From assembly GCA_036172245.1 (NCBI GenBank), contig JAYWIR010000033.1, positions 682,001-746,000 on the forward strand: 64,000 nucleotides of DNA, in the 5' to 3' direction. The DNA comes from Raillietiella orientalis (lineage: Eukaryota). A program made the translations under genes and the position numbers. Shown piece after piece: positions 1 to 40,712 of this stretch. The notes under the pieces were generated by a model. That model was given only the letters and a program-made list of their open reading frames with translations, searched no databases and had not been told where the DNA came from. Position 1 is the first letter of the stretch. Every line of letters begins with the position of its first letter.

Positions 1-1742
1 CCTTCCCCATCGGTGACGGCGCGTCGGGCGGTTCACCCTCCGGTGGGGTCGCGCATACCTGTTGGCCCTCCTCCATACGGGTGGGCTGTACAGGGTCCGC
101 GCCGGCAAGGTGGACCTAGCCCCCCTTCTCACCCTTCTCCATGGGGGTGGCCTGCTCGACGACTTCCGCGCGTGAGATTTCCCCCTCCGGGGTTCCCACG
201 CTGCCGTCGGCTTCCTGCTTCTCCTCCTCGCTCGTAAAGGGGAGGCGCCTCCTCGGCTTTTGGGACTTGCGTCCCGTCTTCCGGGAGGGTTCCTCCGACG
301 AGGAGGATGCACTTCCGGTTCCCGGGTCGCACTCAATTGCGGGGGCCTTCTTCGGCGGAGCCGGCCTTCGAAAGGCCTTGCGTGAGGGGTTCTCACGCTC
401 GGCCAGCGTGGCCGCGAGCTCCTCCGCCGCCTGCGCGAAGGCGGCGTCCTCGCTTTCGGCGCGCGCTTCGAGCGGCTCACCCTCTGTGCAAACAGAGGGT
501 TCGTCGTCGCGAACCTCGGGCGCGGCGGAAACGGCAAGGGGAGGCTCGTCGCCCCGGGTGGCAGCCTCGGGGACGACAATCCTTTCGAGTGCCACCGTGC
601 ACTCGCGAAGAGGTTTCGAGCGCGGACCGGGTTTATTCGGTTTCGCGCTCTTATTTCTCTTCGCTCTCGCGGGTTCCACGGGGGGAACTTTTTTTTCTTT
701 TTTGGCCTTTACCAGCTTCCATCCGTCTTCCTCTCCCGCGTCTTCAGCGGGTTTTTCCTCCGATGCCTGGGTGGGAGGAACAGGAGATGGCGACTGGGGC
801 CGGCCAGTTTCGCGATAAGGTCTTTCGACCTTTTTTCTTTTTTAAGTTTGCGCCTTTTTGGCAGCAGGTGGCACCGGGGTGGGGCGTTTGGGGCACACAC
901 GACGAACGTGTCCCTTCACTCCGCACAAGTGGCACTCTATATTCGGGCACCGCTTGCGCAAGTGCCCTACTGCATCGCAGTAGCCACAATAGCGGGGTTT
1001 CCCCACGTACCAGAGGTCGACGGATTCCTTTAGTTTGTGGGACAAGCCACTGCCCTCATTAACCGTTACACGCGCTGCGGCCTGGCCTCCGAAATGGCTA
1101 TTAAAGCCTTCGAAAATGGTAGGCTTTGGCCACAACGCGTATATCTCACCGTATTTACTGAGTTCATTACTCACCGCAGATCGCGTCATGCGGTTCGTAA
1201 TGCCGGTTAGATGGACCACTACGGAGCGGTCCATGCTAACCGGAAGGATCTTCCGGCCATCCACATTCAGCGGGGTGTTAATGAGGCGCTGTGCTTAGGC
1301 TACATCTTTGCAGACGACCTGCACGCGCTGCCCCCCGCTGAGTACGGAGTGACCGTCAAGATCCTCCTCGCGTACAGGGAAATCCTGCAGTGCCCTACTA
1401 AAAGCCCGAGTGGTGCGACCATCAAACAGGGGTCCTACTTTATAAACCAGAGATGGTTTATATCTGGAGGCCCTGTAGGCCGCTTGCTCTGCCAAGGTTT
1501 CCGCGCTCGGTGCGGAAACCATGGCGCTCCACGTCCTTGGCGTTGCCGGGGATGATTCCGGGGCGAACGCCCCTGATTCTGCAGGCTGTGGGGGTGGGCA
1601 AGCCTCCCCCACACCTACCTCCATCGTGGTGTCCTCAAGCATCGTTGCCATCGGACACCAACGATGTTCCACACGAACACACACAAAGAAAAAAGCCGCT
1701 TCCTGTCGACTCGCTCGGGAGCTCAGGAAAAACACGTCCGCT
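1..1742 (-). mobile_element. E1: 5' part (5'UTR + disrupted ORF1) of an L1/Tx1-like non-LTR retrotransposon, running off the left edge; apparently inserted into E2
   Basis: ORF1 pieces 1651->1295, 1264->842 and 679->116 are homologous to E4 ORF1 (MATMLEDTTMEVGVGEA..., CGYCDAVGHLRKRC, CHLCGVKGHVRRVC). 5' motif GGACGTGTTTT at ~1729-1739. Sequence right of ~1743 switches to + strand ORF2 of E2. Boundary is approximate. Confidence 0.85.
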
Positions 1743-4256
1743 CGCCAAGTGAGTTGGGGAGGGGCCGCGTAACGAAAGGTGCTATCTTCAGGCCTGACGT
1801 TACGCGAGAACCCCCGACATGCGCAGGTTAGCAGAGTATCGAGCGGGAGCCGAGAGGCAATCCTAGGAATCCGGGTCGGACAGCTTGCTGGACGACCAGG
1901 GCCTGGAGCACTCGGTTCCCGCTCAGAAACGCGGGATAGTGAGGAAATTTTACTCCTTTCAGTACGCCAGGGCGCCTCCGGAGCAGGCTGTCTCACGACT
2001 TTTGCTTCTGGTAGGTGCTCCAGCAATCGGAGAAAAGGAACCTCGACGAGCCTTTCACGATCGGCGAGATCATCTCGTCCATCGGATACCTCAAGAGGCG
2101 AAAGGCATCAGGGGAGGACGGCTTTCCTGCGGAGTTTCATCCAACTTTCGCGGCAGAGCTTACTCCCCTGGTACATCAGCTGACCTTGCTGGTCCGCGAA
2201 ACAAATGACGTTCTCACCTCGTTTCGTTCAGCAAAGGTGCGGCTCCTCCCTAAGGGAGGAGACCTTAGGAGCATGAACAACTGGCGTCCCATCACAATAG
2301 TGAATGCGGACGCCAAGTTGCTTGCCAAGCTGTGGGCAGAGTGCTTGGGACGGGTCGCCAACATCTTCATCAGCTCGGAACAGACATATGCTGTTCCCGG
2401 GCGAAGTATGGAGGCGAACCTGTTCCACGCTTCCACATGGTTAGAGCTCCAACAAGGAAGGAGCATAATAAGCAACCGGAATTCCGGTGCGTCCGTCGGT
2501 GGGGGACGGGATGGTCGGGATGGAAGAGGAGCCATCGCGGTCGCAGTCGATTTGCATAAAGCATTCGATTGCGTCGACCAGAATCTCCTTTTGGAGCTTC
2601 TGGAACGCTTGGTCTTCCCGGTCACTTTGCTGGCCTACCTGCACTTCAGCTTGCGCGACGCGCTTATTAATGTTTTTTTTAGTGGATCTACCGTGTACGG
2701 CGTACCGGTTTGACGCGGCATACGGCAGAGGGACAGCCACAGCCCCTTGCTCTTCAGCGCCTATTTGGAATTGCTGCTGAGAGCATACAGGGAGACTCTG
2801 GCACACCTGCCGTGCGATTGTCCCGGTACGCCTGCGGTTTCGGCGTACGCGGACGATCTTCTGCTGCTGCTGCCTATGTCCACCCCGGCCTCGGCGCTCG
2901 AGGACTTCTTCGACCTGCTGAGTCGTGGAACAGGACTGACGGTGAACAGGGCGAAGTCGTCCGTAATGCCAGTCGGAGCGGCGTGGGCAGGGCAGCAGGA
3001 CTGGGTCCGTTTGGGGATCCCCACGGTGAGGTACTTCGAGTACCTTGGTGTGCCGTTGGGGGAGTACTCCCCTGCGGAAGCGTGGTCCGGCTGCCTTCAG
3101 AAGGCTCAGGCGGCGATCGGCCCGTTCCAGGACCGCAGGTTCTTCCTGCATGAACGGGCCGCGGCGTGGAACGCGTTGGCAACCCCCCTCCTTCGCCCTT
3201 TGCTTTTTGTTTGCCCCCCCTCAGCGGAGTCAAAGAAGAGGACGAAGGACCTCCTGAGGATCGCCCTTTGGGGCAGAGGAAGGCCCCGAGTCCGTCTTTC
3301 GGACTTGTGCGCTCCTCGTCGGGATGGTGGTCTGGGCCTCCTGACGTTGAAGCGGCTGGAGCTACAGCTCCAGTTCCGAGTTGTCGCCTTTATGGCAGAA
3401 AATTGGTGCACCTTATGGTGCCTCACTGCAGGTCTCTTCGTCGAGGGGGCCACCGGCAATGCGGGACTCTCGTCCTACTTTGCAGTCCGAAGCCCCATCT
3501 GCCACTGAGGACTTCAACTTCGGAGGGCGGCCAAGCTCGTGAAGAACAACTCGGCGCGGATCCTCGTACGCCCCGCGAACAGTCCTGCCTGGCTGCAGGA
3601 AACCGTGCGGACGTGGGCGATGATTCAGACGCAGAGCCCGCAACACGAGCGAATAGCTGTGTTCGGGCCGCATGCCCACCGCACGCTCCGAGAAATCCTC
3701 GAGGATCCTCGAAGGAGAGCGTGGGCTCAAAGAACCTTCCTTGCTGCGGTACTGCATACCCTACGGGAACATCTGGGCAGCGACGTCGCAGCACAATGGG
3801 ATGTTACTGTCAAGATCGCCAGCAGGGCAAAGAAGATCGGGGATTGGAGTACGGGTTAGCTCACCAACGCTGCGACCCCGAGGACCACCCCAAATGGACT
3901 CTTGCGCTAGGGAGAGCTACTGGATGTTCCAGAGGAACATCTCGAGTGGCCCTCGGTGCTCATGGACTCGCGCACCCTCCCCATGAAGTGGCAACAGTCG
4001 GCACTGCTTTTACACCCGGGTGCGCCGGGGCGTTTATTTCTTTAATAAAAAAAATAAACAAGCAAGTGTAGGGCTATCGCCCCTACAGTGTTCAGAACAT
4101 GTTCTTCTGAACTCGCCGAGTGGGCAGCACTCAGGCTCCCAAGGTCGACTCGGCAGCGGAGGGGGAAGGGACAAATAGAAAAAAGCAAAAAGAAAACACT
4201 ATTTACAAAAGCAGGGAGGGGTTGGGGAAGGGATCACGTTCCGCTGGAGACGTCCT

Positions 4257-7200
4257 CTACATCCTTTGCAGGATGCCGGCAAGTTCAAACTGCATGTGTC
4301 CCAGATGGGTCCATCTGGCTGCCGTCCTCAGGAAGCGCAGGGCGTAGCACAAGATGTCCCTATCGTTCGGTCCACCAGTGGCGGTGCTCCAAGCCGCTAC
4401 AATCCCTCGTAGGCAGCAGAGGGCTGCAAGGGCTGCGGCAGGCGAAAGGGCGTCGCGCACGAAGAGGCGCTTTAAAATGTCTCTGGGAGCGTGCAAGGGT
4501 GCACCAACGGCTGTTGCAAAGCGCAACCACAGGGGCCGGAGGGCAACACAGTCAACGAGCAGGTGCGGGACAGTTTCTCGTTCGCCGCACCTGACACAGT
4601 TTGGGTCCACAACCCCCCTCGTCCAATGAGAGCGGCGGGCGTTGCTGGGGAGTCCCCAGTGCAACACCAGGAACGCCGACTCCTGCCACTTTAGGGGGAG
4701 GGCCCGAGTATTCCTCAGCACTGGGGGCCACTCGAGTTCATCCCGCGGGATGCACAGCAGCTCGCCCCAGCGCAACAGTCCTCTCGGTGGGGAATTTGGG
4801 ATCGCGGCATCAGCAAGCTGACCCGTGGTCCAACCACCTTGTTCTTTCTCAGTGTCCCTGATCGTACACCGGACCTCCCACATGGCCGGCTGGCTACTGC
4901 CCAGATGTTCCTTGAGGTGGGACAGAGCTGTGGCAAGGGAGGTCCTCTCAGCCCACGCACTCAAGGCGGGCTGCACGATGATGTCCTGCAGCGAGCGGCT
5001 CTTATGATAGGAGTGCAGCATTCGCTGCCGCAACTTCAGGCTCGCTTCCTCGATCTGGGCCCACGTGCGAAGGCTTTCCTGCAACCAGGAAGTGCCGTTC
5101 GCGGGCCGGCAGGAGATCCAGGTGTTCTTCCTGGTCAGCTTCGCCACTCGCCGAAGAGCCAGTCCGCAGTGGAACAGGTACCGGCGTTTGCGGCGCACTA
5201 GGAAGGTAGATAGTCCCGCGCAGCCGCCGACTCGCTGAACCAGGCATCGTGCAGGCTCGCACCAGCTGGCGCTCCACAACTTCGCCACTAGGGCGATTGT
5301 TCGGAACTGCAGCTGCAGTTCGAGGCGCTCCAGCGTGAGGAGGCCAAGGCCCCCATCGCGACGAGGGGCGCACAAGTCCTTCCAACGCGCGCGGGGCCTT
5401 CCTCTGCCCCAGATGCCGATTCTGAGGAGGTCCTTTGTACGTGTTCTCACACCACGGGGTGGGGGACGAACAAAAAGCAAGGAGCGAAACAGAAAAGGCC
5501 GGGAAAGGGGCCACGAAAGTGTTCCACAGCACGGCCCGTTCCGGCAAGAAGAACTTGGCATCCAGTAACGGGCCGATCGCTCTCTCGACCTTTTGGAGGC
5601 AGCAAGACCATTGTTCCGCTGGGGAGTAGTCCCCCAACGGCACACCGAGGTACTTAAGGTACCGTACCGTGGGGATCCCCAAGCGAGACCAGTCTAGCTG
5701 CCCTGCCCACGAGGAACCGACTGCAACAACAAACGACTTTGCTCTGTTCACCTCCAGTCCTGTCCCGCGACGCAGCAGCTCGAAAAAGTTTTCGACCGCC
5801 GACGCCGGGGTGGACATGGGGAGCAGCAGCAGAAGATCGTCCGCATACGCCGCCAAGGCCGGTGTACCTGGGCACACGCGCGGCAGGCGACCAAGAGTCT
5901 CCCTGAATGCCCTCAGCACCAACTCGAAGTAGGTGCTGAAGAGCAAGGGGCTCAAGCTATCACCCTGCCGTATCCCGCGGCGCACCGGCACACCGAACAC
6001 GTTCCTTCCCCTGAAAGAAATGTTGGTCAGCGCGTCGCCCCAGCAAGAGCGCAGAAAGGCCAATAAGGAGGCCGGGAAGCCCAAGCGCTCCAGAAGCTCC
6101 AGCAGGAGCTCCTGGTCGACACTGTCGAATGCTTTCCGCAAATCGACAGCGACCGCGAGGGCCCCTTCTCTCTCCCGACTATCCCGCGAACCACCAGCGG
6201 ACGTCTTGCAAATCGGGCTGCCGACCTTGTTCCCTCCATTCATTCTGGTTCTTTGAAGTTCGAACCAGGTGTTCGCGAAGAGCAGGTTGGCGTCCATGCT
6301 TCGCCCGGGAACAGCGTGTGTCTGCTCCGGGCTGATGAAGCTTTCCGCCACCCGCCCCATTCGCTTCGACCATAGCTTCGCAACCAGCTTGGCGTCCGCG
6401 TTCAGTACGGTTATCGGACGCCAATTGCTGAGGTTCCGTAAGTCTCCTCCTTTCGGTAGGAGACGCATACATGCCGATCGGAAGGAGGCGGGAACGTCTC
6501 CTGTCTCCCGGATCAGCAGCGTTAGCCGCTGCACCAGGGGAGCCAGCTCCGCCGCGAAGCACTGAAAAAACTCCGCGGGCAGGCCGTCTTCCCCCGGTGA
6601 CTTCCGCCTTTTGAGCTTCCCGATTGAGGTGATGATTTCACCCATCGTGAAAGGCTCGTCCAGGCGTACTCTCTCTTCTTCCCCGATCGCCGGGGCACCG
6701 TCCGGAAGCAAAAATTGGGAAAATTCCCGGTCCGGAGGCACCCTGGTGTACAGGGAAGAATAATAGCCGTGCACGAGGCTACTCACCTCTGCCGGGGCCG
6801 AGTGCTCTTGGCCTTCGTCGTCCAGCAGGCTGGGCGACCCCGATTGCCAGGCCTGCCGCTCGGCCCCGGCTTTAAATTCCGCCAGTCTTCGGACGTCTGG
6901 TGTTCGGGAGTAACGACGGGCCTGCAGGTAAGCCCTATCGTTCCGAACACCTTCTCCAAATCCTTTCGGGAGACGGTCCATGGGAAACTGTTGGCAGAAC
7001 TCTCGCACCGAGACTTTCAAATCGTCCCAGTCGTCGAGCGTCTGCAGGCTGCAACCTCGCAAGAACGCGCGGAGGTGTTCCGCTGCGCCTGGCTTGGTCA
7101 GCCAGTCCCCCGGTAGACGCCACGCCTGCGCGGGGGGCCCCCTGTCGCGCGGGCGAATGACGAGTTCCACACGGGAGTGGTCGGAGACTGCGGACTGTAT

Positions 7201-7836
7201 CTTACCTCGCCTGCCCACGCGACAGCGCAGGTGATCGTCGAGGAAGACGTGGTCCACGCTCCGTTCCATCCTGGTATCCCCGGCTAACAAGTTGGATGCG
7301 TGCACCGCAGCGCACATCTCGTTAACCGGGGTGGCCTCTGTCCTCGCCGCACCTGATAGCAGGCGAATATTAAAATCGCCGGCTATCAGGTGCGCCGTGC
7401 GCGCGCCTGCCTCCGACAGCCAGTCGCGCTTGAACGCACGGAAAAACGCCGTCCGTGCCACGCGCGCGTGACCGCCGCTCGGCGCGTACACGTTCGTGAC
7501 GACGAGATTGATGGAGTCGGACCACCTGAAGGTGATTTGCCCGACCCGACCTGCCTCATCGAAACGAACTTTCCGCACCGCGCGTTGTAAGGCAGGCTTC
7601 AGAAGGAAAGCGACCCCGCGCGTACGGCGGTGGCGGCATCGCCACATAAGCTGACCACCTGCTATCCGTTCGATCTCCCGCGCATGTTCTGCGGAAATCT
7701 CATGGATCTCCTGCAGCAGCACGAGGTCGAAGGCTTGCAAGGTGGCAGCTATGTCTCGTCTCCTGCCGTCATCGCAAAGCCCGTTGACGTTCCAGCTGGC
7801 GATGCGTATTTGACGGCAGGTGGCGAGTCCCGGCAT
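4257..7836 (-). pseudogene. E3 ORF2 (APE endonuclease-reverse transcriptase-Zn finger), one frameshifting indel near 5490-5510
   Basis: SWNVNG, LQE, NVYAP, GDFN, DH and SDH (APE); WRPI, DLRKAFD, GIRQGDSLSP, YADD, YLG (RT); CVRCGE..HLLVDC. Split between ORFs 5002..7836 and 4257..5645. Confidence 0.92.
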
Positions 7837-9435
7837 TACTGCTGGGAAAGTGATGCTGCGTCTCCCGCCTCACCTAGGGGCGGGACGCCGGCTTTCTCCT
7901 GTGCGGTGGGGGGCGGCTCGACGACCCCCTCCGTCTCCATCGGCTCCGTCTCGACCGATCGTGGGAGTTCAGGACTCGTGTCCATCTCTCCCACGCTCGC
8001 CGCACCCTCGTTTCCGGAGGATTCCCCTTCCTCGGAGGAGACGATCCTCCTCGGGTTACGGATTTTCCTTCCGGTCTTCCTCGGGGGTGCAGATGCGGAT
8101 GGTGCGTGTCCGGTCTCCAGGTCCGAGTCCGAGGTCCCGGTCCCCCTCCTCTCGGCCGGACGTCGAACGGCCTTCTTCCCGACCTTTGCGGGAGGCTGCT
8201 GACTGGCGGCGAGCTCGGCGGCGGCTTTTGCAAAGCCAGCGTCATCGCGGCTCCCCCTCGCCGCAGCCCTCGGACGCTGTTTGCACAGCGACGGGGCTGT
8301 CAGCGTTGTTGCACACGGCAACGTCCTGTTCGCACGGCACTTCGGCGTCTGCAAGGCGCTCCAGTGCGACCGTGCATTTTTTCAGTCCCTGCTTTTTCGC
8401 GGGTTTCGCGGTTTTTGCAGGGACTTTATTTTCATTATTTACGTCCTTTTTTTCTTTCTTTTTCTTTGGACAGATCTTTTGCCAGCCAGGCTCTTCTCCT
8501 TCCACCTCGGTTGCCTGCGTTTCTGCAGACGGGGTGGTCGGGATGCCCTTTTTGGCTGGCTCCGGGTCAACCGTATTTTCAGACGGCGGCCTGGTCTTGC
8601 CAGGCTTCTTGCTCGCGTTCGTGCCGCTCACGGCAGCAGCCGGCGCGCGCGAAGTCTTTTTGGGGCACACTTCTTCCGTGTGCCCGATTGCCTCGCACTT
8701 GCGGCAGGTGATGTTGGGGCAGCGTTTCTTCACGTGCCCCGTACCATCACAAAACGCACAGTATTTGGGTTTCCCCAGATACCAGATGTCGACAGAATCT
8801 CCGTCGACTACTAGTTTATGGGGAACCCCAATGTCCTTATTCACAGTCACACGTGCCGCGGCGAGTCCGCTCAGGAGTCCGTCATAAGTACGGAACCTGT
8901 TGGGCTTCAGCCACAGCGCGTGTACGGTGCCGAATTTGCTGAGTTCAGCCCTAACGGCGCTCGGTGACATCCGCACGGTGATTCCACGGAGGTGGACAAC
9001 TATTGAGTTGTCCACCGGGACAGAGAAGATCTGGCGGCCCTCGACCCTGACGGGGGTTCGCAGCAGTATTTGCGCCAACCATGCTTCTTTGCAGGTCAAC
9101 TCGACATGCTGTCCCCCGCTGCGGATGTAGAGACCCAGCAGATCCTCCTTGTTAACGTTCAAACGGTGGAGCTCCTTCTCGAAGGAGCGCGCCACACGGT
9201 CATCAAACACCCGGCCTACCTTATACAGCAGACTCGGGTTGTAGTCGTAGGCCTTGTAGGCCTGGGCCTCGGCGATGGCCGCTGCAGATGGCGCGGCGAC
9301 CGCGGCGCTGTAGTCCCTCGCCGGCGCGGGGGACGAAGCTTTCGGGGCAGGTGCCCCTATCTCCATGGGTACGGGGGACGTTCGCCCGGCCCCCACCCCA
9401 CATTCACTAGTAGCGGGATCAGGCATTTCTGCCAT
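7836..9435 (-). pseudogene. E3 ORF1 (gag-like, 2 CCHC zinc knuckles), one frameshift near 8245
   Basis: ATG 9435 (MAEMPDPATSE...), CAFCDGTGHVKKRC and CRKCEAIGHTEEVC. Continues in the 7836..8354 frame to TAA at 7836-7838, which overlaps the ORF2 ATG. Confidence 0.85.
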
Positions 9436-10516
9436 CCCCCGACCACTGATGCACCGCACTACACCAATAAAGTCGAGCGAGTCAGGAGCGCGCAGAGAAC
9501 ACGTCTGACCGTCGGCACTGCTGGTGTTGCATTGGGGGCTTCCTTGCAACGCCCGCCGACACCACTGGACGCGGAGGGGTGTCAACCCTAATTGTGTCAG
9601 GTGCGGGGAGAGGGAACACCTCCCCCACCTGTTAGTGGATTGTGTTGCCCTCCGTCCCTTGTGGGAACGCTTTGCCGCAGCCCTGGGGATCCCCGGAGGC
9701 ACCCCCAGAGACGCTTTGCGCCCCCTCTTCGTCCGTGACGCCCTGCCTCCAGCGGCCTCGCTTGCAGCCCTGTGCTGCCTACGCGGGATCGTCGTGGCAT
9801 GGAGCAAAGCGACGGGAGGATCCAGCGACAGGGATGCCAACGTGTATGCCGCCCGTTTCCTCTGGATGGCGACGCGATGGAACTATCTGGAACCACACAC
9901 GCAGCAACAGCTTGCCGGCATCCTCCAGAGGATGACGGACCCTCCCAGCAGACTGTGATCCCTTCCCGCTCCCTCCCTGATTTTTGTTTATTTTTTTTGT
10001 TTTCTTTTTGTTTCGTTCCCCCTCCCCTCTGCTGCCGAGGTCGACCGCGCCAGTCTGATCACCGGTAGCCCGGCAAGCTATATCTTTCCAGGGCGTGGCT
10101 GGACTACTAGTCCGGTCACAGATTGTATAGGTTTATTCGTGAGAATAAACGTCCCGGCGCACCCGGGTTTCAATGGAGATTCCGGAGCGTGACGCCTCTC
10201 AGGTATTCGCGAAGGTGTTCCTTCGCACCTGAGAGTCGCGTCCAGTCCCCCGGCAGACGCCAGTCTCTGGATGGCGGTCCCTTGTCGCGAGGCCGCATCT
10301 CGAAAATTAACCGGGAATGGTCCGACAACGTTGACGCAACCCTCCCCCGTTTGCCGACCCGTGAACACAGGTCAGCGTCGAGGAAGACGTGGTCGATGCT
10401 GCGGACCATTCCCCTCTCACCCGCGAACAAGTTGCGCGCACGCATGGCGGCGCACAACTCGTTCATCGCGTTCACGTGTGTTTCCGGCTCACCTGTTAGC
10501 AGGCGGAGATTGAAAT

Positions 10517-16423: not shown

Positions 16424-16891
16424 GATTTAAATCTCCCGCTATCAGGTGAGCCTTCCGCACGCTCGTGTTCGCCAGCCAGTCGCGCTTCAGGGTTTCAAGC
16501 AGCCTGGTACGGTTGCTGTATCCCTTTTAACCGGTTGGGGCGTACACATTCGTGACGATCAGATCGATCGAGTCCGACCAGCCGAGAGTCAGCTGACCGA
16601 CCGGACCTTCGTCATCGAAGCGCACGCCCTTCACGGCAGCGTGGATGGCCGGCTTCACGAAGAACGCGGCCCCGCAGGTGTTGCGGATGCCGCATTGCCA
16701 GTACAGCCGACCAACCGCGATCGTCTCGATCTCCTGGACGTCTGCCGCGGTGATCACGTGGATCTCCTGCAACAGGGCCAGGTCGAACTCCCGCAGGGTG
16801 TCGGCTGTATCTCGACTGTTACCGTCGTCGCGCAGCCCGTTGACATTCCAGCAGGCGGCGCGAATCCGACGGCGACTGGCGAGCCCAGGTG

Positions 16892-18637: not shown

Positions 18638-18723
18638 TGGACACCGACGATGTACACAAAACACCACACAGAAGAAAAAGCGCTTTCCTACTACTCTTTG
18701 GGGAGTGAAGGAAAAACGTCCTC

Positions 18724-23300: not shown

Positions 23301-23792
23301 TTGCCGCGCCTGCCCACGCGAGGGCACAGGTGCTCGTCAAGAAACACGTGGTCAATGCTGTCTTCCATCCCCGGTGCACTGGCCAACAGATTACAGGTGT
23401 GCACCGCCATGCACACCTCGTTGACCAGGTCACGCTCGGGATTCTGCCCATCTGGTTTCAGGAGAACGTTGAAATCGCCTGCAACCAGATGGGCATTCCG
23501 CACGCCTGCTTCGGTCAGCCAGTCGCGATGGAGGGCAAGAAAAAACTCTTTCCTCGCCCTCCTGTTCATCAGGTCCTTGCCGCTCGGTGCGTACACGTTC
23601 GTGACGATCAGATCGATCAAGTCGGACCACCTGAGAGTCAGCTGTCCGACACGACCGTGATCGTCGAACCGCACGCCCCGAGCCGCGGCCTCGACGACTG
23701 GTTGAAGCAGGTAGGCGACACCGCAACTTTTCGCTCTCCCACACCTGTACCATAGCCGCCCTCCGGAGATCCGTTCGATATCTTGCGCTCGT
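20361..23792 (-). pseudogene. E7 ORF2, main part (N-terminus at 35571->35408), several stops and frameshifts
   Basis: NVYAP, GDFN and SDH (23102..23674); WRPI and DLRKAFD; AYADD through CVRCGE..HLLVDC (20361..21977). Confidence 0.88.
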
Positions 23793-28805: not shown

Positions 28806-28818
28806 AAAAGGGGAAGAC

Positions 28819-30633: not shown

Positions 30634-31479
30634 CCTGGCAGCTGGTCTTGCTGCACGGGACCACTGCAGGTCTTTTGCCGCGATCTCCTCGCCGCTTCTT
30701 TTTTTTTTTTGTTTCTTCTGGAAAACTTCCCCTTTCCGGGCACACACGAGCACAATGAACTGATTAAGTTGTCAAGCGCACAATACTTCGAGCCGCGGAG
30801 CAAGTTCACCGACTCGGCAGGAGAGGAGGGTTCTGCCGACTGTCAAGAAGGTGACTCCGTTGCCGCCTTTTAAAGGCGTAGCGAAAGCAACGCCCCCAGA
30901 GAACGCAGCGAAAATCCCGGAGGTTTCCGCAACTACTGTCGCGGAAGCCTCCGAAAATCGCGAAGGCGAATGGAAGGTTGTGGAGAGGAGGAAAGAAAAA
31001 TCTCCAAAAAAAGCTCCGCAACCTCCATCCCTGAGCTCTTCCAAAGGAAAAAGCAGTCGCGGGAATACGAAAACACGCGCGGCTTGTGCCTCTTCCAAGG
31101 AAAAAGCCAGCGCCTTCAACGCGTGCAAGTCCGTTTCTGTGACCGCCGAGAAGACCATTCCGGTGCAATCGGACGGATGCAAGCGCACGTCGATCGTGCG
31201 AGCATCAGACTCCGCAAAGGAGTCCGATAACGCAGCTGAACGACGCGTTACTCGCGCGGGAGCGAGCGCCCGCCGGGCTGAAGCCCTGAGGCGTGACACA
31301 CTCGCCGCGGAACGGCGAGTGCTAACCCCGGAACCCACAGGTTCTGCACCCGGGGAGGAGCACCCGATTACGTGCAGCACAGTTGAGGCCGGTGGCGACC
31401 GCGCCCTCCAGCCCGTCGTGCTGCTTACTGCCCGCGCGCCGGGTGAGGCGAGCACCACGGCCTCGCTTTCCCAGCCGTG

Positions 31480-34400
31480 ATGAGGGCAATCGCGTCTTCT
31501 CGTCGTGTTGCCGTAACGTCTTGGAACGTCAACGGGCTCCAACACGAGGAGAAGAGGCGACTAGTGGCTGACGCTCTGCGCGCCTTCGACTTGACGCTCC
31601 TGCAGGAGATTCAGAGCATCTCCGGAGAGCAGGCTGCCGAAATCGAACGGCGCGCGGGCGGAACGCTACTTTATAGGTGCGGCGTTGCACGTACGTGCGG
31701 CGTCGCTTTCCTCGTGCGAGGAACTTTGGCGGGAGCGGTGCGCAGCGTTCGTTTCGACACGGAAGGCCGAGTGGGACAGCTTGTACTCAAGTGGTCCGAC
31801 TCGATCGACCTTGTCGTAACCAACGTGTACGCGCCGAGCGGTGCTGGACGATGGGCCGAAAGGATTGAGTTCTTCGGTACCCTTCAAAGCCAATGGCTCA
31901 CTCGATCTCACCCTACTGTGGCCCATCTCATTGCGGGGGACTTTAACGTCCACCTGCTTTCCGAGAATAGATCCCACAAAAGGGAAAAGTTGCTAGCGGA
32001 AGAGATGTGCGCGTCCGTGCACGCGTGCAACTTGTTTGCTAGCGACCCTGTTATGGCAGCAACGCCGGACCACGTATACCTTGATGAACACTTGCTCTGT
32101 CGAGTGGGTCGGAGAGGTCCCGTGCCGTCCGTGCTTTCCGACCACAACAGGCTCGAGTTCGAGTTGCTCCCGCCAGGCAAGGGGCCTCCAAACTGTTTTT
32201 GGAGGATGCCGGCAGACTGGCTAAGCCACCCGGAGGCGGCTGAGCATCTTCGCCAGTACCTCCTCGGCTTTGCCATAAGTGAGCTCGAGGACTGGGACGA
32301 TCTGAAAAGATCGGTCCGCGAGTTCTGCTGCCGGTTTCACTTGCACCAGCTTCCGCGCGGCTTCGGAGAGGGCGTAGCCAACAGCAGAGATTTCCTGCAG
32401 GCCCGCTCCTTTTCCAGGCGCGCGGACGTTGGTCGATTATCCGAGTACAAGGCCAAGGCCGAGCGCCAGGTCTGGCAGTCAGGGGCGACAGTTCTGCTCG
32501 ACGACCAGGACCGGGAATGCTCGGCCTTAGCCGACGTGCGACGGATAGTCAGGCGCTATTACTCTTCTCTGTATGCAGAGGCACCGACGGAACGCAGCCT
32601 CTCCCGGCTGCTTCTGCCGATTGATGCACCTGTTGTAGACGAGGAGGAACGCGCGCGTCTTGATGAGCCCTTCACGGCAGAGGAAATTTCCTCGGCCATC
32701 TCGGGGCTCAAGAGACGAAAAGCGGCAGGCGAAGATGGGCTCCCCGCGGAATTCTTTCAGTGTTTTGCGGCGGAGCTCATCCCCCTGGTGCTCCAACTCT
32801 CGTCGCTGATGCGAGACTCGGGCGATGTCCCCGCCTCGTTTCGCTCAGCGAAGGTGCGTCTACTGCCGAAAGGCGGAGACTTGCGACAACTGAACAACTG
32901 GCGTCCGATCACATTAGTGAATTCGGACGTCAAGTTGTTCTCGAAACTTTGGGTGGCGCGGATTGGTAGGATCGCGGAATCCTTGGTAAGTCCGGAGCAG
33001 ACGTACGCTTTTCCTGGGCGGTCCATGGACGCGAATCTCTTGTTCATCCGCACATGGCTGCAATTGCAGCATCGTGTGGCGGTGGATCGTCGTGCGGAAG
33101 CGACGCCTTCGATCTCTCACCGACGGAGGCGCAAGACGCAAAGGGAGACACCGGGAGCCTTGGCGGTTGCAGTCGATCTGCACAAAGCTTTCGATTGCGT
33201 GAACCAAAAGCTTCTTCTTGAGCTTTTGGAACGTCTGGGTCTTTCGGCATCCCTGTTGGCATACTTGCGCTCCTGCTGGCGCCACGCGATTACATCCATT
33301 GTTTTCAGTGGCTGTCGCGTGTACGGCGTGCCGGTACGACGAGGAATTAGGCAGGGTGACAGCTTAAGCCCGCTGCTCTTCAGCATCTATTTTGAATTGG
33401 TGCTGGAGGCTTACAGGCTGACGCTAGCCAACCTGCCGAGCTCCTGTCCAGGTACGCCGGCCGTGGCAGCCTGTGCCGACGACCTGCTTCTCCTGTTGCC
33501 CATGTCCACCCCGGCGACATCGCTTGAAGACTTCTTTGAGTTGATTCGTCGCGGTGCGGGCGTGAGCGTTAACAGGAGTAAGTGTATGGTTGTTCCGGTG
33601 GGTGCGATGTGGGAGCGGCAGTCCGACTGGATTGGCCTGGGGATCCCCACGGGCAGGTACCTCAGGTCCCTTGGCGTGCCGTTGGGCGACCTCTGCATCT
33701 CAGAAGCGTGGTCGGACTGCCTTCGGAAGGCAGAGCGTGCACTTGGCCCGTTTTCAGGAGGCGAGTTCGTCTTGCCGGAACGGGCCTGCATCTGGAACAC
33801 CTTCGTTGCCCCCCTCCTCCGCCCCCTGTTTTTTGTTTGTGCCCATCCCTTCAGGAAGTCAAAGTCTGGGCGCAGCGCCTTCTACGCAAAGCGTTGTGGG
33901 GCGCTGCAAGATCCCGGGTTAGACTTAAAGAGTTGGTGGCGCCGCGTCAGGATGCAGGCTTGGGCATCCTCGACTTAAACAGCATCGAACTGCAGGTGCA
34001 GTTTCGCATGCTGCGGCTCTGTGCCAAGCTGTGGTGTACGCCGTGGTGCTTACCCGCACGCCTTATACTGAGGCGCTGCACGGGAAGCGAGGGACTGCTT
34101 TCCTTGCTACCCCACATTCGGCACACCAGAATAGGGTTTGGCTTCCCGCTGAGGCAGCTGTCCTCACTGCTGGAAGCCCAAAGCTGGATCTCCTGCCGCC
34201 CCATGAACATTAATGCATGGCGGCAGGAATCTTTTTCATCGTGGGCAGCTTTCGAAGGAACGCGCCCGGAAGATCTTCGACGCCTGCGACTTCTCCTCAG
34301 TCATCAAATGGACGAAGTCATGCAGGACAAGAAGTTGTCGGATCGTCTGGCCGCCACACCACTCGCCGTAGCGCTGTCTGCCCTCAGTGCAAGCAACGAC

Positions 34401-35054
34401 GGTTGCCTACCGGCGGAATGGGAGTTCTCCTGCAAAATAGCGGGAGTCAGTAAGCTCCTCGGCAGCTGGACGACAAAGGAGCTGGTGCAAGCCGCCTCAC
34501 CTCGGAATCGGGCGAAGGGACTGCTTCGGTGGAGCGAACATTTAAGTGTGCCCCCCGGAGAGATAGTGGTTCCTTCCGTTTGTTTGGACAGCTCCGTGTT
34601 CCCCATTAAGTGGAAACAAGATGTGCTGCTCTTTTTACATTGTGCATTTCACTGTAATAGGCAGCGAAGCATCGTTTCCGGGGGAGCTGCTTTGCCAAAC
34701 TGTTTAAGGTGCGGAGAGATCGAGTCTTTTCCGCACCTTGTGTTGGACTGCGGTGACCTCCGGGAACTGTGGCGAAGGCTCACTTCGGCCATCATGCCAC
34801 AAGGAGGCACTGCCATTGATGTGCTGCGGCGCTTCTTCAGCAGAAATGGACTTTCGGTTGGCGCGATTGTCGCAAACATGTGTTGCGTTCGCGCCATCGT
34901 GAAGGCCCGCTACGCCCTGGAGTTGTCATCGCAGCGAAGGCAGGCTCACCTGCTTGCAGCTCAATTCATGGAGAAGGCTTCAAGGTGGTCTCATCTTCGT
35001 GACAAGGTGAATGAGGACATCACCGGCATACATCGCCGGTTTACACACCTTTGA
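31480..35054 (+). pseudogene. E8 ORF2 (APE-RT-Zn finger), frameshift near 33845; YADD reads CADD
   Basis: SWNVNG, LQE, GDFN, SDH, DLHKAFD, GIRQGD, ACADD. C-terminus lies in the 33582..35054 frame with CLRCGEIESFPHLVLDC. ATG overlaps the ORF1 TGA (TGATG). Confidence 0.9.
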
Positions 35055-35585
35055 GAACGGCGTAATCCGGTGACCCCTGCGACCTCTCGCCCACCCATAC
35101 CCCGTCCCCGTTTGCTCGGTAAAATTTCCGGTGCCCATGCTCTTATCCCCGTGTCTTCCAGAGCGATCCCAAAGACCCTTATCCCGTCCTCCTTATTCAT
35201 TGTTTTTATTTTATTTTGGTTTCTTTGTGTTTCCCGCCCCCCCACACCGTTCACAAAACTGTTACTCTGGCCTGCGAGCCAGCAATATTCTCTTCATTCT
35301 TGTTCAGTCGTCGGTTGGGAGTTTGGTTCCCAACTGGTTTATTTTGTATAATTGCTTTTTTTCGTTATGTTATATGGAATAAACGCCCCGGCGTGACCGG
35401 GTGAGAAATCTCTTGCGCTTGTTCTGCAGAGATCACGTGGATCTCCTGCAGCAGCGCAAGGTCGTAGGACTCCAGAAGGGCGGCCATGTCTCTTCTCCTG
35501 CCGGCGTCTGTCATGCCGTTCACGTTCCAAACGGCGATGCGCAGACGACGGCGGGAGGAGATTCCCGGCATTACTGCTGGGAAGA

Positions 35586-37247
35586 TTAAGGTGTGGGGGA
35601 GCCCTCCTCTTTCGAGGCGGGCGGGATGTCCATGGGGGTTTCGGCCTTCTCAGGCACCTGAGGCACCTGTTCGGCCTCCACCCCCTCCATCCCCTCCGTG
35701 TCCGTGCGTGGGAGTCTCTCGGGCGACGGGTCCCGAGAGTTTCCCACGCTCATGGCACCCTCGCTTGCGGAAGCCTTCTCTTCCCCTTCGACGGGGGAGA
35801 CGAGCTTCCTTGGCTTTGTGGACTTACGTCCAGCCTTCTTGCGCGGTGCCGTGGAAACGGAGGCTGCGCTTCCGGCCTCCACCTCGGGGTCGGAAGTGGG
35901 GGACTCCTGAGGGGAGGCCGGACGCCTTACGGCCTTCTTGCCAGCCTTGGAGGGTTCTGGCTGCAACGAGGCTGCCAGCTCCTCCGGGGCTCGCGCGAAG
36001 GCTACGTCATCGATGGTGGTGTCGATGACGGACGCCGCCGCCGGCTCGCTCCCCTCGCTGTTGACAGTGTCAACAGAGGGGAGGTCGTCGGTAGCGGCGA
36101 GTTCTTTCTGGCAGCGTTCGGCAACATCGAGAACGCGTTCGACAACGACGCTGCACTCTTTAATTATCGCGCTACCCTGCTCTTTCTTCTTCTGTTGGTA
36201 GGCGATTTTCTTTTCCATCCTCCTCTCCTTCTTTGATTTTTTGGCCGTTGCCACTTGCCACCCAGTCTCCTGGCCGGCTCCCTCAACTTTTTCGGCGTTG
36301 GTCGCCGGGGTCTCGGGTGCGGCCTGGGTCTTGGGCGCGGGTGGCACAGCCTTCGCGGCAGCTTTCGTCGCCAGCCTTTTCTGCAGAAGCCGGGCGCGTT
36401 TTTTAAGGTTTCTCTTGGAAACCACCCGCACTGCTGCTTTTGGGCACACCTCCCTCGTGTGGCCCATTGTGCCGCATACTTGGCACTGCACATTGGGACA
36501 CCTCTTTTTGAGGTGGCCCGACGTATTGCAGAAGCCACAGTATTTCGGCTTCCCCCCATACCAGAGGTCGACGGTTTCGCCTTCGACCACCAGTTTGTGG
36601 GGAAGAGTGCAGCCCTCCCGAACGGTCACGCGCGCAGCAGTGAGGCCGTGTTGCAGCCCCGTGTAGTCCTCGAAAGGACTTACTTTCGTCCACTGCGCGT
36701 GGACCGTGCCGAACTGTTCCAAAGCGGCGCGAACCTGTTCTTTGCGCATTCGCGCGGTCACGCCTAACAGGTGGACCACCATGCTGGGGTCCGCCGTAGT
36801 GGGGAGAAGCCTGCGCGTTTCCATCACAACGGGGGTTTTAAGCAGTCGTTGGGCCAGCTCTGCATGTTTGCAGATGACCTCAACGTACTGACCCCCGCTG
36901 CGGATGGTCATAGCGCTAAGCTCCTCCTCTTTCACATCGAGAGCGCGCATGCCCTTCGAGAAGGCGCGCGCGCTCTCTAAAGAATATAAATTGCCTACCT
37001 TGTAGAACAATGAGGGGTTGTACCCCTCCTCCACATAGGCCGACAATTCCGCCGCGGCTGCAGGCGATGGCGCCGACACAACGGCGCTCCACGCCCGCGC
37101 TGCAGCGGGGACCGATTCTGTGGGGGCGGATGCCCCCACCTCCATCGCCTCTGGGGGCGACGTTGCCGCCGCCCCCTGGCTCTCCATCGCCTCTGGAGGC
37201 GGCATTGCCGCTGCCCCCTGGCCATCCCTGGTGGTCGCGTCAGGCAT
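35586..37247 (-). CDS. E7 ORF1, gag-like (553 aa), two CCHC knuckles
   Basis: Open from ATG 37247; CGFCNTSGHLKKRC and CQVCGTMGHTREVC. Stops a few codons before the ancestral CAGCAGTAATG junction at ~35569-35579. Confidence 0.83.
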   Translation of the reverse strand: MPDATTRDGQGAAAMPPPEAMESQGAAATSPPEAMEVGASAPTESVPAAARAWSAVVSAPSPAAAAELSAYVEEGYNPSLFYKVGNLYSLESARAFSKGMRALDVKEEELSAMTIRSGGQYVEVICKHAELAQRLLKTPVVMETRRLLPTTADPSMVVHLLGVTARMRKEQVRAALEQFGTVHAQWTKVSPFEDYTGLQHGLTAARVTVREGCTLPHKLVVEGETVDLWYGGKPKYCGFCNTSGHLKKRCPNVQCQVCGTMGHTREVCPKAAVRVVSKRNLKKRARLLQKRLATKAAAKAVPPAPKTQAAPETPATNAEKVEGAGQETGWQVATAKKSKKERRMEKKIAYQQKKKEQGSAIIKECSVVVERVLDVAERCQKELAATDDLPSVDTVNSEGSEPAAASVIDTTIDDVAFARAPEELAASLQPEPSKAGKKAVRRPASPQESPTSDPEVEAGSAASVSTAPRKKAGRKSTKPRKLVSPVEGEEKASASEGAMSVGNSRDPSPERLPRTDTEGMEGVEAEQVPQVPEKAETPMDIPPASKEEGSPTP

Positions 37248-37340
37248 CGCTGCCTGATCGACCACCGAACCACACGCCGCTTGCACTGGGGGAGACTTCC
37301 TGGCACGAGGAGCACCGAGAAGACACGTCCACCCTGGAGC

Positions 37341-39443
37341 GCACAAGGCGTTCGACTGCGTGGACCAGGAGCTTCTCTTGGAGCTCCTGAGTCGCATGGG
37401 CTTCCCACCCTCCCTACTATCCTACCTGCGCTGTTGCTGGCGCAACGCCATAATCAACGTCTCTTTCAGCAGTCAACAGGTGTACGGCGTGCCGGTGCGA
37501 CGGGAATGAGGCAGGGCGATAGCCTTAGTCCCCTGCTCTTCAGCGCCTACTTTGAGTTGGTGCTGAGAGCATACAGGGTGACTTTGACATCCTTGCCGAT
37601 CTCGTGCCTCGGTACGCCCGCCGTATGATCTTCTGCTCCTTTTGCCCATGTCTGCCCCGGCAGCTGCAGTCGAGGATTTCTTCGATCTGCTAAGCTGTGG
37701 GACTGTGCTACGTGTAAATAATGCGAAGTCATCGATGGTAGCGGTTGGTGCGACGTGGGTCGGATGGCCTGATTGGATCCGTTTGAATATCCCCACGGCG
37801 AGGTGCTTGAAGTACCTTGGTGTCCCGTTGGGGGACTATTCCCCTTCGGAAGCCTGGTCAGGTCGTCTCCGGAAAGTAGAGTTGGCGATCGGCCCGTTCT
37901 TGGAAGACAAGTTTCTCCTTCCGGAACGGGCCGCGGTATGGAACGCGTTCGCGGCTCCCATCCTTCGCCCCCTACTTTTTGTTTGCCCCTTCCACATGGA
38001 AATAAAAAAAAGGACAAAGGACCTCTTGCGCATCGCCCTCTGGGGCAAGGGGAGGCCTAGAGTCTTTTTGATGGACTTGTGCGCTTTGCGTCGGGACGGC
38101 GGTCTAGACCACCTGACGCTGGAGCGCATGGAAATTCAGCTGCAATGGCGAACCTTGACCATCGCAGCCAAGTTGTGGAGCACCCCTTGGTGGGTTCCTG
38201 CCCGCCTCCTCGCCAGACGTGCATCCGGAACCGGAGGACTTGCTTCTCTTCTTTTATGTCGGGGAAGGAAAATAAGAAGATGCGGCCATCTCCTCGGAAG
38301 AATAGCCACCCTGGCGAAGGTGTATGCGTGGATGATCTTGAGCCCCGTCAACTCCAGCGCATGGCTGGAAGAAACAGTTGGCACGTGGGCGATAGTGAAT
38401 CAAAAGATCCACGAGAGGTGGAATAGCCTGCGGCGGGGCAGATACTCCCGCTGCACTCTACGCGAGATCCTGGAGTGTCCAGCCAGGAGCACGTGGGCAG
38501 AGACGACCTGCCTAGCGACGGTGCTGCCCTTCCTACGAAGGGCCCTCGTCAGCAGCCGGACGCCGAGGTGGCAAGTCTCTTGCCGTATCGCATGCAGAGG
38601 AATGTTGTTGAGTGGTTGGATAATGGGACAGCTGGCGGACGCCACAACCCAGAGCGTCCTTTCGCAGGGACTGAAAAAATGGGGCGAGCTGCTCGGCATC
38701 ACGACGGATGACCTGAAGTGGCCTCCAGTGATAACCAGAACAAGGATCCTTCCCCTAAAATGGCAGGAGTCGGCGCTTATGCTGTTGCACTTTTGACTCC
38801 CCTGCAATGCACGCCGCCATCACTGGACACGGGTAAGTGTGAATCCCAACTGTGTAGGGTGTGGGGAGCGGGGATCCCTCCCGCACCTTTTATTTGACTG
38901 TGTTGCTCTCCGGCCTCTTTGGGAACGTTTCGGTACCACCTTAGGGATCCTGGAAGGTAGCCCTCCCAGAGACGTTTTTCGGCTCTTCTTCATGCGGGAC
39001 GCCCTGCAGCCAGCCGCTGTAATAGCAGCTCTCTGCTGCGTACGCGGTATTGTGGCAGCTTGGAGTGGATCCGACGAAGCAGAGGATGTCGACGGAAGGG
39101 GTGCCATGGAGTATGCAGCTCGCCTTCTGCGAATAGCAACTCGATGGCCCCACCTTGGAAATCTGCACAAGGACCTCGTCGGCATCCTGCAAAGGATGGA
39201 AGCTCCAAGTAACGGACATTGATCCCTTCCCGGCCCTCCAAAGAACAGTGGTTTTTTGCTTTAATTTGTCTTTATTTTTATTTTTGTTTTTTCCCCAACC
39301 CCATCCGCAGACGTGGAGTGTCAAGTCGGTGCGCAGACCGACCACCCGACAGCTCCATAGACTTATTGGCCGCAGCGGGGCCTTGTACCCCAAACACTGA
39401 CTGAAAGTTTTTCAGTAAACGCTCCGGCTTGGCCGGGTGAAAA
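37341..39443 (+). mobile_element. E10: 3' part (RT to 3' end) of a decayed element, the target of E6 and E7; apparently inserted into the E11 5'UTR
   Basis: Starts at HKAFDCVDQELLL; the YADD region is deleted; CVGCGE..HLLFDC. Degenerate 3' end AGTAAACGCTCCGGCTTGGCCGGGTGAAAA at 39414-39443. Confidence 0.85.
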
Positions 39444-40712
39444 CATCGACGGTGTGGGATGGCTTTTATGCCTGAGGACACCGCGATGGATGTAGGCGTG
39501 GGGGAGGCTAGTTCGGAGGCATCCGCCCCGGAATCATCCCCGCCGCCGCAGGCGAAGACGTGGAGCTCAATGGTGGCCGCGCGTTTTGCAGGAACCTTGG
39601 CTGAACAAGCAGCCTACGGGGCTGCCGGCCATCGCTTGTTTACAAGGTAGGCAACCTGTTCCACGGGAAGACTGCACGTGCCTTCACGAAGGCGCTGCAG
39701 CTGCGAATGTACTGGAACAAGATCTTGACGGCCTCTCCGTCCTCAGCGGGGATCAGAGCGTCGAGGTGGTGTGCAAATACGTTTCCTTGGCACAGCGCTT
39801 TATAAATAACCCACTGACGGTAGACGGCCGCAAGATTTACCCGGTGACGATGGACCGCTCCGTTGTGGTCCATCTAACCGGAATCAGGAACCGCATGGCT
39901 CGCTCTGATGTGAGTGATGAATTGAAGAAGTACGGAGAGATGCACGCGCTGTGGCCTAAACCCACGATCTATGATGGCTATAATAGCCTTTTCGGGGGTC
40001 AGGCTGCGGCGCGTGTCACCGTCAAAGAGGATTGTGGGCTCCCCCACAAACTGGAGGTTGCCAGAGAATCGGTCGACCTCTGGTACGTGGGGAAGCCCCG
40101 GTATTGCGGCGACTTTAATGCCGTAGGACACCTTCGCGAGAGGTGTGCGGGGAGCATACAGTACCACTTGTGCGGGGAGCGGGGCCACGTTCGGCGCACG
40201 TGCCCAAAACGCCCCACCCCAGTTCCCTGCGCAGCGAGAAAAGCGCAGGGGAAACGCGCTGGAAAAGAACAAAAACAACGAGAGAGTGGCCATTACAGAC
40301 AGCCAGTCTCTTAAAGAATCTCTTAAAGTGACGTCGGAGGCTGAGCCTTCCGGAGTAGTGGAAGGCGAAGAGGGTTGGCAGCTTGTAAAGGCCAGAAAAG
40401 AAATGAAGGCAAGACCCGAAGAGAAAATGACGGGTGAAAAAACGGCCCCGAAGACGAATAAAGCCGCGCCGCGCGTCGAAACTCTCCGGGAGTGATACTG
40501 GAGCGGGTCGCCGTTCCGGAGGCTGCCACCCGGGGCGAGGAGCCTCCCCTCGCCGCTTCCGCCGCGCCACGCGCTCGCCGCCGGCGAGGGCGCCGCGTTC
40601 GCGCAGGCGGCGGAAGAGCTCGCGGCCACGCTGGAGGAGCGCGAGAACGTGGTGGGCCCCCGCAGGTGAGTTGGACCGGAAGTCCTTCCTCCTCCGCGGA
40701 GGCAGTCTTCAA
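39444..40712 (+). mobile_element. E11: decayed ORF1 of an E1/E4-family element, truncated at the border with AT-rich host DNA; outermost layer
   Basis: MAFMPEDTAMDVGVGEA..., DLWYVGKPRYC and degenerate knuckles with frameshifts. The upstream CATCGACGGTGT matches the E4 5'UTR (CATCGTCGGTGT). Confidence 0.8.

Follow-up and report, generated by a model that had tools for sequence, protein, structure and literature searches.

Nested L1-clade retrotransposons in a 40.7-kb block of a Raillietiella orientalis contig

How do retrotransposons of several diverged lineages come to lie inside one another, with ordinary genes only a few kilobases away? The question is raised by a 64,000-nucleotide stretch of the Raillietiella orientalis assembly GCA_036172245.1 (contig JAYWIR010000033.1, positions 682,001 to 746,000 of the forward strand), hereafter the window, in which positions 1–40712 are filled by 11 elements, numbered E1–E11 as in an earlier note on this DNA (E7, E10 and E11 also went by G, H and I). 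That these elements form a real nest is clear: full-length copies of several co-existing L1-clade lineages entered, in succession and by target-primed reverse transcription, copies that preceded them. As for what built it, we give a probability of roughly 0.6 to a real regional insertion preference for DNA occupied by relatives, reinforced by selection.

Eleven elements inserted into one another

The nest stands out by its composition, with 58.7% GC in 1–40712 against 40.3% in 40713–55370 (2-kb profile of the 64-kb window). Every base of it could be assigned to one of the 11 elements by self-blastn (42 HSP, or high-scoring segment pair, pairs), by tblastn with the window's own open reading frames (ORFs) as queries, and by located junction strings. 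Only 4 of the 811 200-nt windows of the block fall below 45% GC (minimum 42%), and because all four lie within E9 ORF1 and the E8 3′ untranslated region (UTR), no host-like AT-rich DNA is interleaved in the nest. The earlier note's count of at least 11 nested L1-like elements therefore holds, with 11 L1-clade elements filling 1–40712, as does its claim that no host DNA lies between them, which the GC profile and a gapless segment map bear out.

The assignment to the L1 clade comes from domain content and from the best solved structures. A Pfam scan of 22 long stop-to-stop frames gave Exo_endo_phos together with RVT_1, an apurinic/apyrimidinic (AP)-type endonuclease (APE) N-terminal to a reverse transcriptase (RT), in four of them (ORF2). 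The zf-RVT domain was found in two C-terminal frames, both below the Pfam cut-off (24.0 and 21.8 bits versus 27.5), and CCHC knuckles in four ORF1-type frames, some of them below the cut-off. For the intact ORF2 of E9 (1227 aa, 25290–28970, minus strand) the best solved structure in a PDB search was human L1 ORF2p (4e-53), with R2 at 1e-26. On these grounds, we class the elements as L1-clade non-LTR (long terminal repeat) retrotransposons.

Target-site duplications (TSDs) of 9–15 bp flank all five insertions that have both ends in the window, as the earlier note had read them. The two copies are identical around E3 in E2 (GTCGGCACTGCT, 3997–4008 and 9511–9522, 12/12), around E9 in E8 (CCGACTCGGCAGG, 25140–25152 and 30809–30821, 13/13) and around E7 in E10 (CAAGGCGTTCGA, left copy at 20130–20141, 12/12). 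Those around E5 in E4 agree at 8/9 positions (GATTGAAAT at 10508–10516, GATTTAAAT at 16424–16432), and those around E8 in E7 (23780–23792 and 35408–35422) are 13 and 15 nt long and differ by a single indel and a single mismatch. Two junctions located independently, by homology, would share an exact 12-mer by chance with a probability of ~7e-6.

Each insert was then excised together with one TSD copy, and homologous proteins were aligned across the junction. They span it in a single frame in three of the four testable cases (E2 minus E3, E4 minus E5 and E7 minus E8), and E8 minus E9 has one frame open for >518 aa through the junction, so that the claim of four target ORFs resuming after excision stands, three by spanning homologues and E8 by its open frame. 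The reconstructed lengths are 5502, 5907, 5572, 5946 and 5656 nt; all five complete inserts are full length.

At the termini, six 3′ ends share the motif AATAAAC-G(C/T)CCCGGCG-N3-4-CCGGGTG, followed by 2–4 A-rich bases, and at the corresponding position E9 carries another hairpin; a long poly(A) tail of the L1 type is absent from the 3′ ends. As a pattern, the 3′ motif has eight hits in the window, six at element 3′ ends and two that are internal chance matches. At all seven observable 5′ ends of hairpin-type elements, the motif [AG]GACGT[GT]T lies 4–13 nt from the terminus (1739 in E1, where it reads GGACGTGT, 9506, 16417, 18721 in E4, 20116, 23800 in E8 and 37330 in E7), and these account for 7 of the 13 places where it occurs in the window. 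No observable 5′ end is truncated.

Ten nested insertion events are packed into the 40.7 kb, and all ten join different lineages or sub-lineages. At least five diverged lineages are present at 65–79% nucleotide identity by self-blastn, the one close pair being E6 and E7 (93.8%). E2, E3 and E10 are each 70–79% identical to E7; E1, E4 and E11 form a lineage at 68–76%, E5 and E8 another at 73%, and E9 matches the other elements at the protein level only. The order proposed in the earlier note, E11>E10>{E6>E4>{E2>{E1,E3},E5},E7>E8>E9}, is plausible and fits the junctions. Its depth of six levels is also plausible; it rests on one-sided junctions, because the left halves of E1, E2, E4, E6, E10 and E11 lie off the window. 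Decay follows the order along E10>E7>E8>E9, from several breaks in E7 through a single frameshift in E8 to an intact E9, and E3 is less broken than its host E2.

Read from the left, the window opens in E1 (1–1745, minus strand), a 5′ part with 5′UTR and an ORF1 interrupted by in-frame stops, which runs off the left edge and is inserted in E2. E1 is 76% identical to E4 in nucleotides and its ORF1 gives a tblastn match at 1693..8; the E1/E2 boundary (~1745) is uncertain by up to 9 nt. E2, on the plus strand, is 78.8% identical to E7 and 70.5% to E3, and lies in two pieces: 1746–4008 holds ORF2 from mid-APE/RT to the C-terminal part, with several frame breaks, and 9511–10168 holds the ORF2 C-terminus, the 3′UTR and the 3′ hairpin end at 10168 (motif at 10147–10168). 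Between them sits the full-length E3 (4009–9510, minus, 5502 nt), with one frameshift per ORF. E2 itself is inserted in E4, of which 10169–10516 (minus) is an APE-coding part (~aa 167–278) whose remainder is off the window leftwards; 10195–10516 aligns with 7055–7376 of E3, and a spanning HSP in one frame reaches ~10176. The full-length E5 (10517–16423, minus, 5907 nt) separates this piece from 16424–18729 (minus), which holds the E4 5′UTR, ORF1 (611 aa open) and the start of ORF2.

E4 is inserted in E6 (18730–20129, minus), present as its 5′ 1.4 kb with 5′UTR and an ORF1 with one stop. A 12-nt piece of E10 (20130–20141, plus) comes next, then the 3′ piece of E7 (20142–23792, minus), which begins at ~aa 61 of ORF2 and finishes in the 3′ hairpin at 20142. 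Inserted in E7 is E8, on the plus strand, whose first piece (23793–25152) carries the 5′UTR and the N-terminal part of ORF1 and whose second (30809–35407) carries the rest of ORF1, an ORF2 with one frameshift, the 3′UTR and the 3′ hairpin end; excising E9 restores an open E8 ORF1 of 636 aa. E9 (25153–30808, minus, 5656 nt) is the innermost element, a separate lineage with its own 3′ hairpin and both ORFs open (571 and 1227 aa). The 5′ piece of E7 follows at 35408–37343 (minus), with 5′UTR, ORF1 (585 aa open), a TAATG overlap and the first ~60 codons of ORF2. The right part of E10 (37344–39443, plus), from the HKAFD motif of ORF2 to the 3′ hairpin end, has its left part off the window and is inserted in E11 (39444–40712, plus), an ORF1 fragment (~aa 46–494 of 631) that is 71.5% identical to E4 and is cut against AT-rich DNA.

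Outside support for the assembly comes from one public DNA run (X1), whose Logan contigs hold part of 35001–45000 (11% of sampled words); no RNA run was found among public sequencing runs for the same interval. When X1 contigs were placed on 20050–40049 at >=85% likeness, 628 matched, and they bridge both E9/E8 junctions with 595 nt (24845–25439) and 519 nt (30512–31032), which differ by 10 and 11 letters (~98% identity). One contig starts at 23791, two bases ahead of the first base of E8. In another, 7 other letters separate 23779 from 35417, and we take this contig for a paralogous copy of E7 type that lacks E8. Over E9 (25386–29387) the summed contig depth is 52–83 against 8–34 over other elements, ~2–8 times as much, and it is 1.4 over the E11 bin 39393–40049, which includes the last ~50 nt of E10. 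These depths are relative to those over other elements; by this contrast the E9 lineage seems to be multi-copy in that sample, where copies of the E11 lineage at >=85% likeness seem to be few or lacking.

One insertion site used twice

The insertions of E6 and E7 meet at a single site. The 12-mer CAAGGCGTTCGA borders the 5′ ends of both elements as well as the 3′ end of E7, and at 37344 it runs on in frame as H-K-A-F-D-C-V-D of the E10 reverse transcriptase. The copy at 20130–20141, part of the HKAFD codons, has the 3′ end of E7 on one side and the complete 5′ end of E6 directly on the other, and so is at once a TSD of E7 and the sequence that borders E6 on its 5′ side. Along the minus strand one meets E10, site, E7, site, E6; the two inserts belong to the same lineage and have the same orientation.

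Of 1400 aligned sites, 87 distinguish E6 from E7, and their alignment contains no internal indel. These substitutions comprise 50 transitions and 37 transversions, and so give no sign of a bias like that of repeat-induced point mutation (RIP). Over codon positions 1, 2 and 3 they are distributed 26:15:46 (chi-square 17.0, p = 2e-4), a skew which indicates that most of the divergence arose under purifying selection in active lineages and which contradicts a tandem duplicate decaying in place. Such divergence fits two independent insertions at one 12-nt site. That a later insert should by chance meet an already used site, oriented alike, in the course of 10 events has a probability of ~1e-3. We infer that the lineage of E6 and E7 can re-use a site to the nucleotide. 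In a literature search that was not exhaustive, we found no published case of a long interspersed element (LINE) homing to the RT motif of another LINE.

Regional preference, purging and known LINE clusters

The earlier note, which itself named Zepp, held that a guild of several families repeatedly targeting its relatives would be a distinctive system. Self-nesting L1 clusters are, however, already in print, those of Zepp and ZeppL in green algae and of Grem-LINE1 in Mucor. In Coccomyxa, nested Zepp clusters of 1.5–42 kb are described as occurring once per chromosome, at 61% GC against 53% for the genome (PMC3446292). ZeppL clusters are placed at Chlamydomonas centromeres (PMC8226300, PMC9940879), and telomere-to-telomere (T2T) assemblies of Chlorella are reported to agree with Zepp-type LINE-based centromeres (PMC11005252). 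As far as these published descriptions, rather than sequences, allow comparison, the nest resembles Zepp and ZeppL in having L1-clade LINEs inserted into earlier copies in a compact cluster of tens of kilobases, in elements that are GC-richer than the genome, and in the normal genes that adjoin; Zepp clusters are taken as centromeres. The same accounts describe Zepp clusters as built from a single family, mostly as 5′-truncated 3′ ends (PMC8226300, citing Higashiyama 1997), whereas in the nest at least five lineages are cross-nested and 5/5 complete inserts are full length. The nest also differs from Zepp in 3′ ends made of AATAAA and a hairpin without long poly(A), and in AT-rich host DNA (40% GC).

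Grem-LINE1 is described as confined to gene-free pericentromeres of 15–75 kb beside short AT-rich cores, and as having a zinc finger in ORF1, domains of the AP endonuclease, RVT and zf-RVT types in ORF2, an overlap of the two ORFs and a 3′ poly(A) signal (10.1101/706580). Again by description, the nest shares the set of Zf, AP, RVT and zf-RVT domains (the last sub-cut-off), the overlapping ORFs (TAATG in E7 and TGATG in E8, where the ORF1 stop meets the ORF2 start) and the 3′ poly(A) signal. Grem copies, however, resemble one another at 90% or more; their description has them interspersed and pointing away from the core, and does not call them nested (10.1101/706580), whereas identities in the nest are 65–79% and orientations are mixed.

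Human LINE-1 shares with these elements the AP endonuclease and RT, two ORFs, variable TSDs and target-primed reverse transcription (TPRT), and its ORF2 is the best solved match; the elements differ from it in lacking a poly(A) tail and a TTTT/AA-like nick site, in being GC-rich, in an ORF1 with CCHC knuckles, and in 5′ ends that are complete rather than mostly truncated. Within the Tx1 group, Tx1L inserts in the Tx1D DNA transposon. Here, too, APE-type L1-clade elements use other repeats as targets, and the E6/E7 tandem with a target copy between resembles site-specific insertion; unlike the Tx1 group, with one target per family, the nest has a different site for each insertion apart from E6/E7. 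The tie to Tx1 by name consists of automatic 'Transposon TX1' labels at 25–29% identity. The target preferences that the earlier note cites for Tx1-group elements do not extend here to strict site specificity, since the sites differ; the exception is the exact re-use of one site by E6 and E7.

With self-nesting L1 clusters already known, what differs here is the cross-nesting of diverged lineages, the full-length copies, the hairpin termini without poly(A) and the exact re-use of a site. The nest adds one more well-documented case to a phenomenon already known, and its lineages have hardly any sequenced relatives. In a collection of 5.8 billion proteins, the ten best matches to E9 ORF2 are 22–28% identical, and named relatives, including plant proteins automatically named 'Transposon TX1', reach at most 29%; the closest relative in that collection is an unnamed JGI protein (P0046) that is 76% identical to E3. 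Protein-profile scans of genome-contig and viral-contig collections gave no relatives. A metagenome match to the 3′ end motif (L001) was put down to chance, the motif lying in a coding-looking stretch with no blastn or tblastn similarity to the elements.

In our preferred reading, the co-existing L1 lineages that built the nest by TPRT would integrate for preference where relatives already occupy the DNA. Their cue would be regional (chromatin or GC-rich composition) and not one common target sequence, as proposed for Zepp/ZeppL and Grem-LINE1; the pattern would be sharpened by selection against insertions where the genome is compact and dense with genes, and the reverse transcriptase probably recognises the 3′ hairpin. 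We favour a regional preference because the inner elements are young, a 3.8-kb gene-free spacer next to the nest is untouched and one site was re-used exactly. Were insertion even over the window, all 10 events would fall in element DNA with a chance of 9e-4 if 23.3 kb of host DNA tolerated insertion and of 0.02 if 10 kb did. Such local probabilities favour a bias to element DNA and cannot separate insertion preference from purging.

Several observations weigh against this reading. When the five fully defined sites are written on the strand of their inserts, neither nick shows a shared motif and none of the sites resembles TTTT/AA. A hairpin as general target rule was rejected when four reconstructed target sites were folded against 1500 random windows of element DNA: only that of E5 is unusual (-19.6 kcal/mol, ~3rd percentile; null mean -10.5, 5th percentile -18.1), and the other three are average. 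Insertion points in the hosts are scattered (ORF1 aa ~45; ~1.4 kb from the 5′ end, twice; the C-terminal part; and ORF2 aa ~61, ~166, ~280, ~365 and ~580), and orientation relative to the host element is the same in three cases and opposite in seven. With no motif, scattered positions and mixed orientation, the sites do not behave as a single sequence-specific target of the Tx1/R2 type. The probabilities above are local to one window, singled out after the fact, and if only 5 kb of host DNA tolerated insertion, the chance of 10/10 would rise to 0.12. Seven of the eight KAFD sites in the window are empty, including one in E5 that matches at 12/12, and E5 looks more decayed than its host E4, contrary to a simple age order. 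The 3′ hairpin is kept in sequence, yet none of its five predicted pairs shows a compensatory change. X1, finally, may be close to the source sample, which makes it supporting evidence and not independent proof. The earlier note's claim that a guild of elements targets its relatives is not supported, given the lack of a shared motif, the single unusual hairpin among four, the spread of positions, the 3:7 orientation and the alternative of purifying selection; a safe harbour by targeting is possible but unproven.

Two further features, one outside the nest and one at its right edge, count against the reading. A twelfth copy lies alone in host-like DNA of 44–50% GC (55371–~56900, plus strand), 5′-truncated and internally deleted: it runs from ORF2 aa 315 to 671 and then jumps to the C-terminal part at 56491, and over aa 315–474 it is 59–64% identical in amino acids to the ORF2 of E3 and E8 and 46–52% to that of E5. 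Its place in the AT-rich part means that the nest and that part belong to one genome; it also qualifies the claim that these elements are inserted only into each other, which is true of the 10 nested events and not of this copy. The second is the right edge of E11, which stops within ORF1 (~aa 494 of 631) at 40712, where a TPRT 3′ end is expected, and is thus unexplained as a TPRT junction. A later deletion is possible, as is a twin-priming 5′ inversion of a minus-strand founder. RIP-like decay of E11 into its AT-rich flank was rejected, because blastn homology simply ends at ~40704–40712; a purine/pyrimidine-reduced blast of the flank gave meaningless matches everywhere. At the edge itself, ...CTTCAAG|GTATGTCG, the first AT-rich bases resemble a GTATGT splice donor, probably by coincidence.

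The rival to be taken most seriously, though we hold it clearly less probable than a regional preference, is passive accumulation, whereby integration is near-random, gene-proximal copies are purged and the survivors are those in dead element DNA, with no targeting at all. Genes within 4.5–6.4 kb of the nest, target sites that share neither motif, hairpin, position nor orientation, and the decayed solo copy in host-like DNA are what it would lead one to expect, and the pattern has a probability of 0.02–0.12 under it if little host DNA is tolerated. It does not readily account for the adjoining AT-rich gene-free spacer (40713–44500), which took 0/10 insertions, nor for innermost elements that are young and intact (E9, with perfect TSDs) and hence not merely the residue of old purging; and exact re-use of a site by two independent copies is unexpected under random integration (~1e-3).

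The re-used site invites stronger versions of targeting. In the more elaborate, the nest would be a (peri)centromeric niche of competing L1 lineages homing to each other, with nucleotide-precise homing of E6/E7 to the antisense of the HKAFD codons of a rival RT; we regard this as unlikely, but were it true, each insertion would gain a safe harbour and disable a competitor, a site-specific parasitism of transposon on transposon. Strict homing of the Tx1 or R2 type, in which the endonuclease of each lineage recognises a sequence present in related elements, is in our view somewhat less likely still. It would explain why E6 and E7 occupy an identical 12-nt site in the E10 RT motif, in one orientation and with a site copy between, and why all observable 5′ ends are full length, but members of one lineage sit at non-homologous sites (E5 at ORF2 aa ~166 and E8 at ~61; E1, E4 and E11 differ too), the five nick sites have no consensus and the KAFD sites are mostly empty, the perfect one in E5 among them. 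Least probable of all, and very unlikely, is an assembly artefact in which collapsed or chimerically joined repeats mimic nesting. The edge at 40712, which cuts E11 within ORF1 without a TPRT junction, and outside support from one short-read-derived run with 11% of sampled words are compatible with it. Misjoins, however, are not expected to fall exactly at element termini with TSDs and restored frames, lineages at only 65–79% identity are too divergent for an assembler to mix up, contigs of X1 run across both E9 junctions, and a copy of the same guild in the AT-rich part ties the two parts to one genome.

If insertion preference and not selection builds such nests, they would show how LINEs persist in a compact, gene-dense genome without harm, and the growth of transposon-based centromere-like regions may be illuminated as well. 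The window is unusually clean for dissecting target choice, with full-length copies, intact TSDs, diverged lineages and one re-used site.

Element anatomy and surroundings

Housekeeping genes do adjoin the nest, as had been claimed, the nearest of them 4.5–6.4 kb away: exons of the Rab escort protein (REP)/GDI family at 45189–46388 (plus strand; Pfam GDI and RAE1_2_domI_C) and a ferritin-like exon at 46850–47134 (minus strand; PF00210, 2.3e-11). Ferritin is typical of Mucoromycotina, the group in which Grem-LINE1 occurs; a protein atlas pointed to no decisive taxon for the host genes, and the GDI exon had no match when longer proteins were searched. The AT-rich, gene-free spacer between nest and first gene (40713–44500, 3.8 kb) contains a trough of ~400 bp at 43400–43800 with 17–21% GC and homopolymer runs of C24 at 42339 and A21 at 43452. 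By analogy, spacer and trough are reminiscent of the short AT-rich core centromeres beside Mucor Grem-LINE1. Rfam and tRNA scans of the window gave no matches. Farther right, an ORF at 58542–58997 (plus) has a weak match to CENP-B_N, a pogo/Tigger-type DNA-binding domain (E = 0.002, below the cut-off), and may be a DNA-transposon remnant; ORFs of 198–244 aa at 57000–58029 and 61944–62675 (both minus) are unexplained.

Within the elements, the 5′ GGACGT(G)TTT is the reverse complement of AAACG(T/C)CC in the 3′ motif (3′ ends at 4024–4035, 10147–10158 and others), which might let the two ends of the RNA pair with each other or bind a common factor. In the APE-coding region of E3 (7335–7412), E7 (23439–23516) and E4 (10490–10516 / 16433–16460), all on the minus strand, a strong hairpin whose stem measures 18–20 bp is centred on the GDFN catalytic codons. 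Five of its stem pairs keep pairing through two-sided changes between lineages, and the peptide of the 3′ arm varies in step with them; by minimum free energy (MFE) the three hairpins rank 7, 19 and 35 among 300 random windows of the same element. The hairpin is missing from E5 and E8, and E5 sits exactly in the loop of the E4 copy, at the GDFN codons. ORF1 contains tandem repeats: a 42-nt unit occurs twice at the same place in E6 (19926–20008) and E7 (37140–37222), and E9 ORF1 has units of 27–48 nt at 30305–30508.

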